Assembly (NCBI GenBank): GCA_048882045.1
Contig: JBHLRZ010000002.1
Coordinates: 32,001 to 96,000 of the forward strand
Length of the DNA stretch: 64,000 nt
Origin: Candidatus Thorarchaeota archaeon
GTDB lineage: Archaea > Asgardarchaeota > Thorarchaeia > Thorarchaeales > Thorarchaeaceae
Direction of reading: 5' to 3'
Part shown: positions 1,114-44,721 of the stretch, piece after piece
Layout: every line of letters begins with the position of its first letter
Numbering within the stretch: the stretch's first letter is position 1
Notes under the pieces: generated by a model
The model's database searches: none
Seen by the model: the letters and a program-made list of their open reading frames with translations, nothing else
Told to the model about the DNA's origin: nothing
Position numbers and translations under genes: made by a program

Positions 1114-1129
1114 TGGAACACGTGTTCTA
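1114..1129. repeat. 16-bp palindrome copy 1 (TGGAACACGTGTTCTA)
   Basis: Perfect core GAACACGTGTTC at 1116-1127; identical 16-mer at 1390-1405. Confidence 0.9.
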
Positions 1130-1149
1130 GTTAGTATTGCGCACATAAG

Positions 1150-1170
1150 ACCCCTTCATTTCCACTGGAA
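1150..1170 (-). promoter_or_regulatory. Origin recognition box (ORB), Orc1/Cdc6 binding site
   Basis: Minus strand TTCCAGTGGAAATGAAGGGGT matches the archaeal ORB (TTCCAnTGGAAA dyad + G-string). Confidence 0.85.
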
Positions 1171-1295
1171 GAGATCTATGGAAAAGTCTACGGCGGGCGT
1201 GTGTGTATGCATTATAAAAATGGAGATAAAGAACGGCTGCATAAACGATTATAAATACTTTTGGATATTTTACCGATTAGACATATTTGAATAGT

Positions 1296-1316
1296 TTCTA
1301 GTGGAAACAAGGGGGT
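1296..1316 (+). promoter_or_regulatory. Origin recognition box (ORB), inverted relative to 1150-1170
   Basis: TTCTAGTGGAAACAAGGGGGT; AT-rich spacer between the two ORBs. Confidence 0.8.
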
Positions 1317-1326
1317 TCAATTGTCA

Positions 1327-1344
1327 TTAGAACACATGTTCTAA
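1327..1344. repeat. Palindrome copy 2 (TTAGAACACATGTTCTAA)
   Basis: 18-bp dyad with central CA instead of CG. Confidence 0.85.
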
Positions 1345-1389
1345 GCCATTTTTGAAGATCCTATTGTGTGTATTACAATTAATAGAATC

Positions 1390-1405
1390 TGGAACACGTG
1401 TTCTA
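1390..1405. repeat. Palindrome copy 3 (TGGAACACGTGTTCTA)
   Basis: Overlaps the stop codon of the 99-aa ORF. Confidence 0.9.
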
Positions 1406-1702
1406 AAAGATTTCTTCAACTACTTCAAAGATCTTGATTTTTAGAATGTCTTCATACATCTCAAAGAGAGCATCAAATACGATTCGATGTTCCACTGGAA
1501 CTAGGATTGCTGAATCAGCAACAGCTTTTGCTCCTGGACACTCATCTAGAAGACCAGGCTTCTTTTTCTTTTTGATACCAGATTTGGTTCTCCATGAATA
1601 CACAAATCCATAGAGCTCCTTTGTAAAAGAAACACGTCGTGCGTTACTACGTCTTGCCTGTCGACAATCATAGAGATACAGATATGCTGTCACTCGAATC
1701 AA
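1403..1702 (-). CDS. Small basic hypothetical protein, probable Cas2/VapD-like ferredoxin fold
   Basis: Pattern YLYLYD..RRVSFTKELYG..KKKKKPGLL..AVADSAILVP..helix..KIFEV suggests a ferredoxin-like fold with a lysine-rich insert; fold is inferred. Confidence 0.6.
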   Translation of the reverse strand: MIRVTAYLYLYDCRQARRSNARRVSFTKELYGFVYSWRTKSGIKKKKKPGLLDECPGAKAVADSAILVPVEHRIVFDALFEMYEDILKIKIFEVVEEIF

Positions 1703-1711
1703 CCAGACAAA

Positions 1712-1725
1712 AGAACACGTGTTCT
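1712..1725. repeat. Palindrome copy 4 (AGAACACGTGTTCT)
   Basis: Perfect 14-bp dyad about 10 bp upstream of the 99-aa ORF start. Confidence 0.9.
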
Positions 1726-4486: not shown

Positions 4487-5113
4487 TCATTCCCCAACTC
4501 GCATCTGTATTGCAGCTAGAATCTCTTCAGCTCTATCGGTTTCTTTCTGAACTTCTGCAATCTCAGTCCGGAGTCTGTACGTATAACCAGAACGGTTTCC
4601 ATAACGCTCGAGATGTCCCTTTCCATTATTCCACATTCTTGCAAGGTATGTTGAAGCAGTACTCTTTGGTAGGTCTTCATTGAAAGAATCTTGGTAGATT
4701 TCAGTCACGTCCAATGAGGAGAACTTTCCATGCTTGAATGATGCATAGATGATCACCTGCATCTTGTCATAGTTACTCATCGACTCAAATCGAGTGTCAT
4801 CTAATCCGACTTCTGTGACCTCTTCACTAATTGGCTTGAAGATGAATCCAGTGCTTGTTTCCAAAAAAACCTTGAATTTGACAAACATCTCTTCGATGCT
4901 GCCACCTTTGACCTGAAAACTTGATTCTTCTCCCATCGTTTCGTCTGATACAACAATTTTGAAGTCGAACGGTGATTCTGTGAGAGCCAATATTTTCCGG
5001 AATCTGTTGAGGGCTTCATCAGGTTTGACATACTTGCACTGAAAGATCTCACGAAGACCAGGCGCCGAGCTATATGTGAATTCGTATACATAGTTAGTCC
5101 GGTCTTCAGTCAA
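4487..5113 (-). CDS. Hypothetical protein with C-terminal winged-helix DNA-binding domain
   Basis: FSSLDVTEIY..LPKSTASTYLARM..GHLERYGNRSGYTYRL = wHTH pattern. Confidence 0.7.
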   Translation of the reverse strand: MTEDRTNYVYEFTYSSAPGLREIFQCKYVKPDEALNRFRKILALTESPFDFKIVVSDETMGEESSFQVKGGSIEEMFVKFKVFLETSTGFIFKPISEEVTEVGLDDTRFESMSNYDKMQVIIYASFKHGKFSSLDVTEIYQDSFNEDLPKSTASTYLARMWNNGKGHLERYGNRSGYTYRLRTEIAEVQKETDRAEEILAAIQMRVGE

Positions 5114-5139: not shown

Positions 5140-5581
5140 ATTCACAATCCACTACATTCACTTTGCAAATAAGTGTGAGTATGTGAATTGTGTATACCAT
5201 GATAAGAGCTACATAGTGCGTCTATACACATATAGGACTCGTCCACCCCGTTTTTGCTGTGCTGACGTCCTGTGAAGTCCATTTGACTACAAAAAAGGGT
5301 TATGCATCCTTATTTGAACAAATGAACACGATTCTCCTTTTGTTTCACTATTCACTAATTTATGGCCCTTGTGAATGAGTGTGTAAGTATTTCATATGTC
5401 TTCTTACTTGTTTCCAATGGAAACGAAGGGGTGTGTTCATTCACAGGCTTCATCGCACTTATCATCACCCCGTTCCATCCTTAAAGCAATAAGATGCTTG
5501 TTTTTTCTAGAGTATTCACAATATTGGCGCCATTCACAAGAGAAAAGTGTGAACTGATGTAGATATGAACAACCAGTGAAT
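5140..5581. repeat. Array of nine ATTCAC/GTGAAT hexamers
   Basis: Exact copies start at 5140, 5156, 5183, 5350, 5371, 5439, 5514, 5532, 5576, plus near matches. Confidence 0.75.
5411..5432 (+). promoter_or_regulatory. Origin recognition box (ORB)
   Basis: TTTCCAATGGAAACGAAGGGGT, canonical dyad + G-string. Confidence 0.8.
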
Positions 5582-32160: not shown

Positions 32161-32841
32161 ATGCGTTTGGTAGACAATATTTTTTCCCCGACTGCATCGA
32201 GAGTTATTAGATGTTTACTCGTAAATATCGGGAAAAATTGGACAATCCGAGAACTGGCAAAAGAAGCTAACACTTCTGTCGGGTATACACACGCGATTAT
32301 AGCTACATTAGAGAGAATGGAATATGTAGTGAGAACTGAAGAACTCAAACTTGCTCTTATGAATCCCTTAACACTGATTAGAAGATGGGCTGCTCATCGT
32401 GATTATAATTACGTCAATGATTTTCTTGATTATTATACATTTGACAATGAAATCGAAAGTGTCTTCCATACATTTGAGAGAAATCTCAAGAATGAGGATT
32501 ATTCAGTCACTTCTCTTGCTGGTGCTTGGTTAGTTTCAGGTTATGTTAGACCTATCGATATTCACCTTTACATCAAGAATCGGAAAGACGCAGAGAGAAT
32601 ATCTCAATTGCTGGACATCAAACCAACTGCTGGGAAAGGAAACATCAGAATGGTTATTCCAGATGATTCAGGAGTCTTCTATGGTTCTAGGATAATTCAA
32701 GGAGTAAAGGTTGTGTCGAATATACAGCTTTTTGTTGATCTCCAAAGCTATCCTACAAGGGGTGAAGAGGCTGCACAGAATTTGTATAACTCTATAGAAA
32801 AGAGATGGATTGAACATTCAACAGGTGAGCTACATGTATGA
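32161..32841 (+). CDS. Type IV toxin-antitoxin antitoxin, AbiEi-like (wHTH + C-terminal domain)
   Basis: TIRELAKEANTSVGYTH wHTH; VTSLAGAW, GNIRM, VSNIQLFVDL..RGEEAA. Confidence 0.82.
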   Translation: MRLVDNIFSPTASRVIRCLLVNIGKNWTIRELAKEANTSVGYTHAIIATLERMEYVVRTEELKLALMNPLTLIRRWAAHRDYNYVNDFLDYYTFDNEIESVFHTFERNLKNEDYSVTSLAGAWLVSGYVRPIDIHLYIKNRKDAERISQLLDIKPTAGKGNIRMVIPDDSGVFYGSRIIQGVKVVSNIQLFVDLQSYPTRGEEAAQNLYNSIEKRWIEHSTGELHV

Positions 32842-33652
32842 TAGAGTTCTAACTGAAATCTCAAAAGGGTGTCTAGTTGAAATTCTACTTGAACTCGGTG
32901 CATATCGACAAGACATTGTACTTGTAGGAGGATGGGCGCCTTATTTTCTAACCCAGAACTACTTCGACCATTGTGGTTCAATTGACATTGATTTCGTTCT
33001 AAATCCATCAATCATGATCAAATATCAAAGTATAGAAGGAATTATTCGAAATCTAGGTTATATTCAGACATCTAACATTTTTAGATGGAAACGAACTATA
33101 ACTAATTCTAATACTAAACGACAAACTACTATTCATCTAGATTTTCTCACTGAACCAGAAGCTGCCCACAAAACTATGGAGATGAAGCATCTAATAGAAG
33201 TTCAAAAAGATTTGAAGGCTTGCCTGATTAAAGGAGTAAGTATTGTATTGAGCTTCAACTATGAAGAAAATGTCGAAGCCACTATCCCGGATAATGGAAT
33301 AGCCAATGCTAAAGTCAGAGTTGCTGATAGCGTTGGTTCTCTAACAACAAAAGGACAAGCAATACTGGGTAGGAAAAAAGCAAAGGATTACTATGACATT
33401 TATGCCATAACAGGATTTCACAAAGGGGGCCCAGATAAAGCCGGAAAAGCTTTTGCACAATCGATTAACAACAAGGGATTCAATATTTCAAACCCATTAA
33501 TCTCATCCAGTATTTCAACAATTAGAAACTCTTTTTCTAGTATAAATAGAATTGGTCCCAATGAGGTTTCAAGATTCATTGGATCTGATACCAAAACCGA
33601 TGCTTATGAACGAGTTAATAGATTTCTTGAAATTGTGCATGGAGAGTTGTAA
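32810..33652 (+). CDS. AbiEii-like nucleotidyltransferase (putative toxin)
   Basis: LVGGWA, GSIDIDF, LDFL, K..A..GR.KAKDYYDIY. Confidence 0.82.
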   Translation: MNIQQVSYMYDRVLTEISKGCLVEILLELGAYRQDIVLVGGWAPYFLTQNYFDHCGSIDIDFVLNPSIMIKYQSIEGIIRNLGYIQTSNIFRWKRTITNSNTKRQTTIHLDFLTEPEAAHKTMEMKHLIEVQKDLKACLIKGVSIVLSFNYEENVEATIPDNGIANAKVRVADSVGSLTTKGQAILGRKKAKDYYDIYAITGFHKGGPDKAGKAFAQSINNKGFNISNPLISSSISTIRNSFSSINRIGPNEVSRFIGSDTKTDAYERVNRFLEIVHGEL

Positions 33653-33773: not shown

Positions 33774-33882
33774 TGGTGGGCCGGGGGCGACTCGAACGCC
33801 CGATCTCTTGCATTCTGTGACTTGAGGCTTGACTTCCTCAGCCGCCCCAAGCAAGAATCATACCAAGCTAGACTACCGACCC
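33774..33882 (-). tRNA. tRNA-Pro(GGG) with a 32-nt intron at 37/38 (33813-33844)
   Basis: GGGTCGG/CCGGCCC acceptor, CTTGC/GCAAG anticodon stem, loop TTGGGG|T, intron hairpin, encoded CCA. Confidence 0.92.
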
Positions 33883-33945: not shown

Positions 33946-33961
33946 TAGAACATGTGTTCCA
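33946..33961. repeat. Palindrome copy 5 (reverse complement TGGAACACATGTTCTA)
   Basis: 15/16 match to copies 1 and 3; between tRNA-Pro and the HDAC gene. Confidence 0.75.
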
Positions 33962-34034: not shown

Positions 34035-35084
34035 ATGACCGATTTGGTATATCATGAGAAATTTGTCCAACATGTGATGTCACCTGGACATCCAGAAAAC
34101 CCAGATCGGCTGAGTAGTGCAATGAACTCCTTCAAAAAAGCGAATTTGCTCGATAATCCAAAGGTAAATTTCCTCTCACCTCAGAAAGCTCCACTTGAGA
34201 AGATATACCCTGTCCATGAGGAAAGATATCTGGATGGGATTAAAGCCAAGTCGGAGAAAGGGGGTGGATTCTATACCATGGACACTTCTGTCAATCAGCA
34301 CACTTACGATGCTGCGTTGTTGGCAGCAGGTGGTGGAATCAACGCTGTTGACAGAATCATGCAGGGCGATTCTGAAAATGCGTTCTTGTTGTGCAGGCCT
34401 CCTGGCCATCATGCAGAATACAATCGAGCCTTTGGGTTCTGTTTCATCAACAATATTGCAGTAGCTGCTCAACATCTACTTAGTGAATACAACTTGCAAC
34501 GAATATTGATAGTCGATTATGATGCTCATCATGGTAATGGAACTCAGCATACATTCTACTCATCAGACAATGTGCTGTATGTTGGATTACACCAAGATGG
34601 TAGGACTCTATTCCCGGGCTCTGGATTTCCCAATGAAATTGGGGAAAATAGAGGAGTTGGGTATACTGTAAATCTCGCGATGTATCCAGGAGCAGGAGAT
34701 ACCTCATACAAGCTCTCGTTTGATCGTGTAATTGGTCCTCTTGTGAAATCGTACAAACCAGATTTCGTACTTGTGTCAGTTGGGTACGATGGCCACTTCA
34801 GAGACCCATTGACTTCTCTAGGTCTCACAACATCTGGCTTTGCTATGATGAACTCACGTTTGAACCAATTGGCCAAGTCCTACTCAGATGGTAGAATAGC
34901 TTGTTTCTTGGAGGGAGGATACAATCTGGATGTTATGGCCAAATGTCCACTCAATCTACTTCAGGAGTTAGCAGGATTGAAAGTGTCATCGTTCGATGAT
35001 ACCTATACTGAAAGCGAAACAAGTTTGAAGTATACAGAAGAACTCATTGAGGTAGTTGTTCAAAATTCTCCATTGCTAAAGTGA
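34035..35084 (+). CDS. Histone deacetylase/acetoin utilization family Zn-dependent deacetylase
   Basis: HPENPDRL, RPPGHHA, GFCFINN, DYDAHHGNGTQ, GYDGH..DPL, LEGGY; start moved to ATG 34035. Confidence 0.95.
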   Translation: MTDLVYHEKFVQHVMSPGHPENPDRLSSAMNSFKKANLLDNPKVNFLSPQKAPLEKIYPVHEERYLDGIKAKSEKGGGFYTMDTSVNQHTYDAALLAAGGGINAVDRIMQGDSENAFLLCRPPGHHAEYNRAFGFCFINNIAVAAQHLLSEYNLQRILIVDYDAHHGNGTQHTFYSSDNVLYVGLHQDGRTLFPGSGFPNEIGENRGVGYTVNLAMYPGAGDTSYKLSFDRVIGPLVKSYKPDFVLVSVGYDGHFRDPLTSLGLTTSGFAMMNSRLNQLAKSYSDGRIACFLEGGYNLDVMAKCPLNLLQELAGLKVSSFDDTYTESETSLKYTEELIEVVVQNSPLLK

Positions 35085-43214: not shown

Positions 43215-43517
43215 TCATGACTCCCATAGATTGAACAGGCTTTTCAGCGACCGTGCTCTTAAGTCCTCAATCCTGTACCGATAAATCTTGATTCTCGCAC
43301 CTCTGTATGTCTTCTCTTCAACTAGACCCGATTTAATCAATACCCTAAGATGTGATTTCGTTGAACTGTGATTGAGATCCACCTCTCTACATAGCTCAGA
43401 GATTGGTAGCTCATTATGCTTGGCTTTGGCTAATGCCTTGAGTATTTTGATTCGTCCACGTGATGAGAATATATCCTCTATTGGAACAGTTTCAGGATTC
43501 ATTTTGTTTTCACACAA
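43215..43517 (-). CDS. ArsR-like winged-helix protein downstream of cdc6
   Basis: IFSSRGRIKILK..ISELCREVDLNH..HL..L..GLVEE. Confidence 0.85.
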   Translation of the reverse strand: MCENKMNPETVPIEDIFSSRGRIKILKALAKAKHNELPISELCREVDLNHSSTKSHLRVLIKSGLVEEKTYRGARIKIYRYRIEDLRARSLKSLFNLWES

Positions 43518-44721
43518 CCTTCTTTGTTGAATCGAGCAGACCAGATAGGAACTGTTCTAACATTTCTGCGGGAACTTCTGAAAAACCAATGAGAGTTGTC
43601 TGACCTCTCTGACCCATACCAGATTTTTTAGCATCGATTATTCCGTGAGCATTGAGATCTTGCACCCACTCCCAAATCTGAGTATGAGCCCTTGGTTCTT
43701 CGGAGTATTCTTCACACACAGACCGATACATTTCCTCGACTTCACCTATTGTGATATAGGCACTACGAATTTCTCTGAGTTGTCTTGCTGCAGCTAAGAG
43801 AAACAGCTTGTGTTGGATGGGCAAAGTAGCAAAGATCTCTTTTCTCAATTCAGGATGAGTATCAGTCTTGGCACGTCTTGCATAATCTGGAATTATTATA
43901 TTCTTCTGGTCGCGATCTGCACTTTTTCCAGCTCTCCATAGGAGCTCGATAGCATATCTTGCATCTCCGTGTTCTGAGGCAATGTCACATATGACTTGAA
44001 TTGTTTCATCCATTACCGCATTTTTCACGAATGCCATCTCAACACGGTCTTGTAGAATATCATGAAGCGCTTCTCGATTGTATCTAGTGAATCGTAGAAT
44101 GTTTCGTTGAAGTGTACTGAGTGTGCTTGCGTCAAGAATTTCGTCATCCAGTGGGATCTTTCGACCGATTCCAATGATAGATAGCCGTTGGGTTGCATTC
44201 AGCCGGTCGTCCATGATTCGGGTCAAATCATAGAGAATATCTGCACCTCTCTGTCTGATGAAATAGTCTAGCTCATCTAGAATCAGAAGAAGATATCTGT
44301 CCTCCTCATCGAGAACTTCAATCAACATCTGAAGCAACTCGTCAGGAGAATGTCCACGTCTTGGAAACTTTGGTTTGAACTCCCTCAACGCTCGAAGAAA
44401 AACAAGATAGGCGGTCTTATTGACTCGACAATTGATATGTATACTGTGAAGTCTGATGTTACGTCGCTTGGCCGCTTGAATCATCTGTTCAGAGAAACGC
44501 TTTGCTACCGCGGTCTTCCCGGTACCCACTGGTCCTTCAATAATGAACTTATGACTTGTGCGACCTGGTGAACTAATTAGCGTCTTGAAGCTTTGAACTA
44601 GAGTTCGAATCTCAGTCTGTCTATGTGGAAGACTTTCTGGAACATAGTCTATAGATAGGAACTGTTCTGATTTGAAAACACTACTTTTACTGAGCTCATC
44701 CTCGATATAGTCGTGTGACAT
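43510..44721 (-). CDS. cdc6: Orc1/Cdc6 replication initiator
   Basis: YVPESLPHR, GPVGTGKT, HINC, ILDELD, GDARYAIELL, C-terminal wH with GQRGQTT. Confidence 0.97.
   Translation of the reverse strand: MSHDYIEDELSKSSVFKSEQFLSIDYVPESLPHRQTEIRTLVQSFKTLISSPGRTSHKFIIEGPVGTGKTAVAKRFSEQMIQAAKRRNIRLHSIHINCRVNKTAYLVFLRALREFKPKFPRRGHSPDELLQMLIEVLDEEDRYLLLILDELDYFIRQRGADILYDLTRIMDDRLNATQRLSIIGIGRKIPLDDEILDASTLSTLQRNILRFTRYNREALHDILQDRVEMAFVKNAVMDETIQVICDIASEHGDARYAIELLWRAGKSADRDQKNIIIPDYARRAKTDTHPELRKEIFATLPIQHKLFLLAAARQLREIRSAYITIGEVEEMYRSVCEEYSEEPRAHTQIWEWVQDLNAHGIIDAKKSGMGQRGQTTLIGFSEVPAEMLEQFLSGLLDSTKKVV

Follow-up and report, generated by a model that had tools for sequence, protein, structure and literature searches.

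What does a short palindrome do on either side of a replication origin, and which protein reads it? The question arises from a 64,000-nucleotide stretch of a Thorarchaeota genome (the window, to which positions refer unless a contig or locus is named), in which four GAACAYRTGTTC palindromes frame an inverted pair of ORB elements together with the gene for a 96–99-aa Cas2-fold protein. Archaeal control of origin firing beyond Orc1/Cdc6 is largely open, and the final question of the paper on the Sulfolobus origin protein UBP is whether analogous proteins exist at the origins of other lineages (PMC12141716). An initial annotation of the window had proposed that a sequence-specific factor marks this origin for segregation or licensing.

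The palindromes and their probable origin

The core GAACACRTGTTC was found in the window at 1116, 1330, 1392, 1713, and 33948, and the palindromes in register are the 16-mers 1114–1129, 1328–1343, 1390–1405, 1711–1726, and 33946–33961. The four at the origin are self-complementary at 14 of 16 positions and the fifth at 12 of 16. Ten strand-matches to the core occur in the window compared to a shuffle mean of 0.76, and none of 100 shuffles reaches 10, which bears out the earlier report of four copies within about 610 bp and a fifth at 33946. Of the copy starts given there, 1114, 1390, and 33946 hold, and 1327 and 1712 were each one base off. The whole host genome holds 10 exact 12-mers, where a 4th-order Markov model predicts 0.18. 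The region from 938 to 2400 shows zero differences to a contig from a second study.

The left ORB lies at 1150–1170 on the minus strand and the right ORB at 1296–1316 on the plus strand, 136 bp apart center to center. Both have their G-strings pointing outward, which is the geometry of Sulfolobus oriC1 as seen in the probe printed in PMC12141716. Between them is a DUE-like AT-rich core (1171–1295) with a GC content of about 0.30 (measured over 1200–1289) versus 0.44 genome-wide. A central DUE word near 1217–1229 is conserved within the Thorarchaeota family, and inverted ORB pairs 129–138 bp apart are present in 41 of the 42 Thorarchaeota loci that carry the small gene. Taken together, the sequence features make this locus the probable ORB-type chromosomal origin (oriC1) of the Thorarchaeote. 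The central DUE word, AAAATGGAGATAA, and a TATA-like stretch about 25 bp away are conserved across Thorarchaeota and form an element in the position of the Sulfolobus ucm motif; the DUE of Odinarchaeum has a different conserved word.

The orc1-1 gene of the host is found 129 kb from the origin locus rather than beside it. In six other families (f2, f3, f7, f16, f19, and f21), among them Jordarchaeales, Freyarchaeum, and Odinarchaeum, the small gene and the ORB elements are within a few kilobases of orc1/cdc6 and the PolD small subunit gene. The window also contains a second orc1/cdc6 paralogue (43510–44721, minus strand), which is 31% identical to Odin Orc1-1 and has no good ORB upstream. A lone ORB at 5412–5432 lies upstream of a winged-helix gene (4487–5113, minus strand) whose orthologues adjoin orc1/cdc6 in other Asgard families, and the two are probably a remnant of the cdc6-side region left behind when cdc6 moved.

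One palindrome lies to the left of the ORB pair and three to the right, so the copies do occur on both sides of it, as had been claimed. Copy 1 (1114–1129) is outside the left ORB, 43.5 bp from it center to center, and the start of IOR-alpha follows about 88 bp downstream of the copy. Copy 2 (1328–1343) lies 34.5 bp from the center of the right ORB, the modal spacing across lineages. Copies 3 and 4 mark the two ends of the small gene, again in agreement with the initial annotation: copy 3 (1390–1405) contains its stop codon, and copy 4 (1711–1726) is in its promoter and start region, an operator position, 8 bp upstream of a TTG and 17 bp upstream of a GTG at 1693. Copy 5 (33946–33961) is far from the origin. 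It lies between two divergent genes, one for a tRNA-Pro(GGG) with an intron (about 33774–33882, minus strand) and one that is histone-deacetylase-like (ATG near 34036, plus strand), and its position is kept in 5 of 10 Thorarchaeota genomes checked. The intron of this tRNA is 32 nt long, a default ARAGORN scan missed the gene, and its exons are nearly identical to those of an intron-less tRNA-Pro in locus L140. Beside the 3′ end of the tRNA gene, an HTH gene and a nucleotidyltransferase-like gene (32161–33652) form an AbiE-like pair that is possibly an integrated element.

Distribution and conservation of the site

From 136 sites the consensus WTTRGAACAYRTGTTCYAAW is obtained, and its core does not vary. 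In 40 of 41 Thorarchaeota origin loci the ORB pair is framed by palindromes, the exception ending at a contig edge, and they are almost never found between the two ORBs. The modal distance from ORB center to site center is 34.5 bp in Thorarchaeota, and distances of 31–36 bp are also seen in families f2, f7, and f21. At the modal spacing, the site would fall just beyond the G-string, beside the expected seat of Orc1. The distances fit a helical period best at 10.5–10.6 bp, but R is 0.52 for all values, 0.34 when only values distinct within each genus are used, and 0.25 for distinct values, and the phasing is suggestive only.

Among 301 Asgard genomes, the 16-bp site is present in 75 of 76 Thorarchaeota (f1), 1/1 in f2, 5/5 in f7, 5/5 in f16, 3/6 in f19, and 3/3 in f21; it is near the origin in Thorarchaeota and in the five other families, six in total. 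Conservation at ORB pairs in six families supports the earlier claim that a sequence-specific factor marks the origin. In the same set the site is absent from f5 (0/28), f9 (0/68), f14 (0/11), and f27 (0/11), as well as from f20 and f24, and sporadic non-origin copies occur in f12, f15 (2/4), f17, and f22 (3/21), of which f15 and f22 lack the gene. A mild excess of the 12-mer in f5 was rejected as a signal, the matches being coding and without the flanks. In the complete genome of Ca. Freyarchaeum deiterrae there are just two copies, and they flank the gene at oriC. Copy numbers are about 2–23 per genome, with 19–23 in one family other than Thorarchaeota.

A few loci depart from this layout. 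L164 (G070:C422) is a Thorarchaeota-type palindrome locus in a bin of family f12 and is probably a contaminating Thorarchaeota contig. In one f16 genome, a LAGLIDADG-like ORF is inserted beside the origin palindromes (L084:880–1398). In four Jordarchaeales loci (L033, L036, L200, and L201), where the GAACA site is missing, another conserved palindrome of the GTTAACA-N3-5-GTTAAC type takes up the promoter region upstream of the Cas2-fold gene.

The site is not confined to origins. A PWM scan of the host genome gives 13 strong sites with almost no weak tail; four are at the origin, and the other nine are spread over seven contigs in promoters, convergent gaps, and genes. Eleven of the 13 are outside genes (taking copy 5 as upstream of the deacetylase ATG), although the genome is about 90% coding. 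By rough ORF calls in 10 Thorarchaeota genomes, about 36 of some 55 non-origin sites are upstream of a gene, often 45–125 bp from its start, 7 are in convergent gaps, and about 12 are inside genes. One dispersed position is conserved in 9 of the 10 genomes, 127–139 bp upstream of a lone ORB that precedes a gene of 123–130 aa. In the host, this palindrome lies about 132 bp upstream of the lone ORB at the gene start, behind rubrerythrin-like genes (L041:2251–2403, contig C82), and the gene is possibly under joint control by Orc1 and the palindrome binder. The remaining dispersed positions mostly differ between Thorarchaeota genomes, and their targets have no common pathway. Some in-gene sites arose in single lineages with amino-acid changes relative to the host orthologue, and one in PolX is base-for-base identical in three genomes whose proteins are 60–80% identical. 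Few sites are near tRNAs, and an association with tRNA genes was rejected.

Such a pattern invites the explanation that the palindrome serves an ordinary small regulon or acts as a transcription roadblock, with autorepression, a few targets, and origin copies that only stop or tune flanking transcription and play no direct part in initiation. The roughly two-thirds of dispersed sites that lie upstream of genes, the conserved targets at the lone-ORB gene (9/10) and at tRNA-Pro/HDAC (5/10), the seven sites between convergent genes, and the placement of copy 3 on the stop codon of a gene transcribed toward the origin would all suit it. However, the targets are mostly genome-specific, perfect sites have arisen inside genes, and the copies beside the ORBs are the most conserved class and keep their spacing, which makes this account improbable. 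The initial annotation had taken scatter through ordinary promoters as a sign of a regulon, and its call for a scan of the genome and of related Asgard genomes has a mixed outcome: clustering at the origin is conserved, yet scattered copies, many in promoters, are also present. Since the origin cluster is conserved, the palindrome is not merely a regulon element despite this scatter, and the dispersed sites as a whole resemble neither a clean pathway regulon nor parS.

The origin core itself has changed direction. The DUE occurs in two orientations relative to the small gene in Thorarchaeota loci, and parsimony on a 42-locus tree gives five changes, several on well-supported branches and one resting on a weak orientation call; the flipping involves window positions 1114–1405 and was seen across loci L001–L073. 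The ORB-to-palindrome spacings flip together with the core, so that the breakpoints fall on the outer palindromes or close to them. The palindrome could then serve in recombination or mark where a mobile cassette ends. Two palindromes, though, always form an inverted repeat, and turning a bidirectional origin around should be neutral; in addition, the small gene is single-copy and syntenic across families, and no recombinase gene is seen beside it. We regard this as the least probable of the explanations considered and read the inversions as neutral flipping between short repeats, with a dedicated recombinase conceivable but unsupported. No inversion joint at the palindromes was seen in the contigs, a result that carries no weight since contigs drop rare variants.

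The part of the initial annotation that fares worst is the marking of the origin for segregation, in which the cluster would nucleate a partition complex for the origin region as parS does. A 16-bp dyad centered on CACGTG, clustered at the origin and present in few copies of high information content, as for parS, does look the part. Against this, the 16-mers match the bacterial parS consensus quoted in that annotation at only 6–9 of 16 positions, in line with its own remark that the arms are non-canonical. Its statement that the window lacks parA and parB extends further: ParB_N (PF02195) has no match in the 93%-complete host genome, by a search that was positive in 10 of 14 control genomes, and the six matches to the ParA family (PF13614) include none on the origin contig, C2. 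Sites also occur beyond the origin region and over many contigs. In genome G110, four are spread over 0.9 Mb of a contig without an origin, and G245 has 18 over 11 contigs; these and the host are draft genomes, whose contigs give the distances of dispersed sites to oriC only in part.

The neighborhood contains a different origin-proximal array, which also weighs against a partition role for the palindrome. A field of GTAWTAC heptads (G000:C2:22600–33750) lies to the left of the window and reaches positions 1370 and 1740. Its density, 13 heptads per 10 kb compared to about 0.5 expected, is the highest of any bin in the host genome, and inside it are genes for a non-ParA AAA ATPase (C2:24823–25797) and a 120-aa RHH-like protein (C2:25730–26092). 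Two heptads, at 1370–1376 and 1740–1746, flank the small gene. The first is 24.5 bp from palindrome 3 and the second lies the same distance upstream of palindrome 4, a spacing that most Thorarchaeota loci share. The field is a better centromere candidate than the palindrome, and the locus may thus have a centromere-like system, though not the palindrome; that the palindrome is itself a parS-like centromere seems very unlikely. In Hermodarchaeia (L159, L160, and L189–L199), a Cas2-fold/winged-helix fusion gene, the distant form of the small gene in that group, follows genes for a related AAA ATPase and an RHH-like protein, within a field of 9-bp-phased TTCAWTRAA words that extends over 7–8 kb around the ATPase and RHH-like genes; no ORB was seen in these loci.

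The small Cas2-fold protein as candidate binder

The small gene (1403–1702, minus strand) encodes 99 aa when read from the TTG, and its start is probably the GTG at 1693, giving 96 aa. Its neighbors are IOR and lysine-ketoglutarate reductase-like genes. Close homologues of its product carry the name Ca. Thorarchaeota, which places the host among the Asgard archaea. It is present in single copy in 65 of 76 Thorarchaeota genomes, and orthologues (E<1e-28) occur in f1, f2, f3, f7, f16, f19, and f21 among the 301 genomes of the Asgard archaea, which the homologue searches covered. The gene and ORB module is kept across families, as a check of the synteny suggested earlier has now established.

The annotation of the protein as lysine-rich and Cas2-like was apt. 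Its pI is 9.1–9.3, and an AlphaFold2 model (pLDDT 92) predicts a ferredoxin-like, Cas2-like core with an 18-residue Lys/Arg-rich beta-hairpin inserted at residues 31–48. A Tyr-Asp pair of the Cas2 type at the end of strand 1 is invariant in the family alignment. A homodimer through the C-terminal strand is predicted with a score of 0.43 versus 0.00 for the best control (of 30 solved homodimers 20 attain this mark, and of 23 single chains only 1 does), with contact agreement of at least 87% and pLDDT of at least 83 between runs; this score may be owed to likeness to Cas2 dimers. The hairpin is outside the named interface residues, so a dimer could offer two hairpins to a dyad site.

Database searches place the protein only loosely. 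None of 19 family members matches Pfam at E≤1, no NCBIfam family fits, and the best PDB sequence match is a Cas2 with an E of 0.26. Fold searches of the PDB gave no clear match: the best Foldseek E is 0.065, and the best VIA Z is 8.1, to generic ferredoxin folds. The Cas2 protein SSO8090 aligns with the model at a Z of 6.8 and an rmsd of 2.4 over 68 residues, tied with many generic ferredoxin folds. The nearest predicted structures (TM 0.84) belong to unnamed archaeal families, some fused to nucleotidyltransferases. UBP (PDB 9EFD–9EFF) is not among the fold matches listed, which is evidence neither for a new fold nor against a relation to UBP.

That the protein binds the palindrome was only suggested in the initial annotation. 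It is now the best candidate by its co-distribution with the site, by the promoter copies, and by the worse fit of rival genes. Site and gene co-occur at the family level, with Odinarchaeum as the exception, where the gene is kept at the origin and the site is found in 0 of 4 genomes. A copy is present on the promoter of the small gene in Thorarchaeota (−23 to −27), f21 (−17), and f19 (−79 to −88), and in the Odin-related lineage the sole copy in the locus sits there. The promoter copy is missing in f2, f7, and f16, the sites in f16 being 0.6–0.9 kb from the gene. A sigma-70 promoter scan is uninformative for archaea. Given the kinship among the families and the closeness of site and gene on the DNA, their co-occurrence is not independent evidence, and the identity of the binder with the Cas2-fold protein is favored only somewhat over the alternatives combined. 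Two further points count against a role in reading DNA, namely the invariant nuclease-type Tyr-Asp and the fact that characterized proteins of the Cas2/VapD fold are nucleases or scaffolds (PMC9510766).

Hermodarchaeia (f12) were considered as a test of co-variation, as another palindrome brackets their divergent Cas2-winged-helix fusion gene, and were set aside. Their field is the counterpart of the GTAWTAC field of Thorarchaeota and is therefore not counted in favor of a Cas2-fold binder.

The binder could instead be some other, unlinked transcription factor or nucleoid protein, with the small gene merely one of its targets. This would account for Odinarchaeum, which has the gene without the sites, and for f16, f7, and f2, in which the sites follow the ORBs and not the promoter of the small gene. 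The GAAC-N4-GTTC shape is, moreover, one that winged-helix dimers read, for example Gram-positive LexA (PMC11442139). On the other hand, the only copy in the locus of the Odin-related lineage is on the promoter of the small gene, LexA has no match at cut-off, and four linked candidates that were tested all fit worse than the Cas2-fold protein. An unlinked binder is unlikely on balance, although it is the strongest of the alternatives. As for the individual candidates, a TrmB-like HTH protein and a helical protein were not found in the host genome; the origin-linked winged-helix family occurs in many families without the site; and a 181-aa HTH protein occurs in the site-less f12, f13, and f27, while a search of f16 did not find it. 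For LexA, PF01726 has no match over the cut-off in the host genome.

The explanation that we consider best, with its chances about evenly balanced when taken as a whole, is that the locus is an oriC1 with a palindromic site for a dimeric protein that is both an origin accessory and an autoregulator. The palindrome TRGAACAYRTGTTCYA would be bound with high specificity by a protein dimer, most likely that of the Cas2-fold protein, whose two basic beta-hairpins would each read one half-site. Seated just outside each Orc1-bound ORB, the protein could frame, loop, or shield the ORB-DUE-ORB module and so affect initiation. From the promoter copy it would repress its own gene, and it would occupy about 5–20 further chromosomal sites. 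In a bolder version, a Cas2-fold dimer independent of CRISPR has turned into a sequence-specific DNA bridge. It would clamp the oriC flanks beside Orc1 and thereby control initiation, form a loop at its own gene, and employ a few perfect sites in other places, including some that evolved recently within unrelated genes, as anchors on the scale of the chromosome that couple replication to chromosome architecture. We consider that version unlikely.

The element is real and conserved, and it is apparently undescribed: no publication on the palindrome and gene was found, nor any literature joining Asgard, replication origin, ORB, and Thorarchaeota; of three papers that contain the exact 12-mer, none concerns archaea; and a 2025 paper on the Asgard replisome makes no mention of ORBs or palindromes. 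What it adds for the Asgard archaea, the prokaryotic relatives of eukaryotes, is a site of defined sequence, 18 bp long, and a candidate protein of 96 aa, and a cheap in vitro test of both would need only synthetic DNA and the recombinant protein. A confirmed binder would be a case of the Cas2 fold being used to read specific DNA sequences, of which a limited search found no published example.

Comparison with known systems

The origin itself shares with Sulfolobus oriC1 (ORB3-DUE-ORB2, bound by Orc1-1) the inverted ORBs about 130 bp apart, the AT-rich core, and the outward G-strings. As in ORB-type origins in general, orc1/cdc6 is nearby, but in the relatives outside Thorarchaeota. It is unlike them in the relocation of orc1-1 in Thorarchaeota, in the additional palindromes beyond the ORBs, and in the repeated flipping of the core.

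The palindrome resembles parS of bacterial ParABS (PMC7333895) as a 16-bp dyad with few copies and a cluster at the origin, and differs in its arms, in the lack of any ParB found and of ParA on the contig, and in its copies beyond the origin region. Another archaeal system, SegAB/segS of Sulfolobales, likewise has a centromere-type site adjoining the gene of its binder, and SegB is a ribbon-helix-helix protein on short repeats beside the ParA-like SegA (PMC12139799). This layout resembles the neighboring GTAWTAC field, not the palindrome, though the ATPase of the field is a non-ParA AAA protein. A third likeness is to the LexA SOS box of Gram-positive bacteria (PMC11442139), since the umuC and yolD boxes of S. 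aureus have exactly the same 12-bp GAAC-N4-GTTC core. In contrast to the SOS box, there is no LexA over cut-off, the flanks differ, and the inspected sites are not upstream of repair genes, and the similarity is probably convergent.

The protein has in common with Cas2 and VapD (SSO8090 and LinCas2C; PMC9510766) a ferredoxin-like core, an invariant Tyr-Asp at the end of strand 1, and a predicted dimer through the C-terminal strand. Unlike these, it has no Pfam or NCBIfam match, carries the inserted basic hairpin, and is linked to an origin. Cas1 has no match in the host genome, and by these comparisons the small gene is not a CRISPR Cas2 module.

By analogy, the palindrome appears to work most like the ucm/UBP system at oriC1 of Sulfolobus islandicus (PMC12141716). 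Both have a non-ORB motif at an ORB-type origin with further copies that are mostly intergenic, and in both a small basic protein with beta-hairpins and a dimer through the C-terminal strand is involved, here as a candidate and by prediction. UBP binds the 11-bp ucm motif, which is located within the DUE, as a monomer and has 329 sites (Dhanaraju et al. 2025, PMC12141716), and UBP has been reported only in Sulfolobales and Desulfurococcales (PMC12141716). The likeness fails on position, symmetry, and site number: ucm lies in the DUE midway between the ORBs, whereas the Asgard palindromes are outside the ORBs, form a 16–18-bp dyad, and have the candidate gene at the origin, and the 329 ChIP peaks of ucm compare with 13 strong sites in the host, the latter being the count of a sequence scan and not of ChIP.
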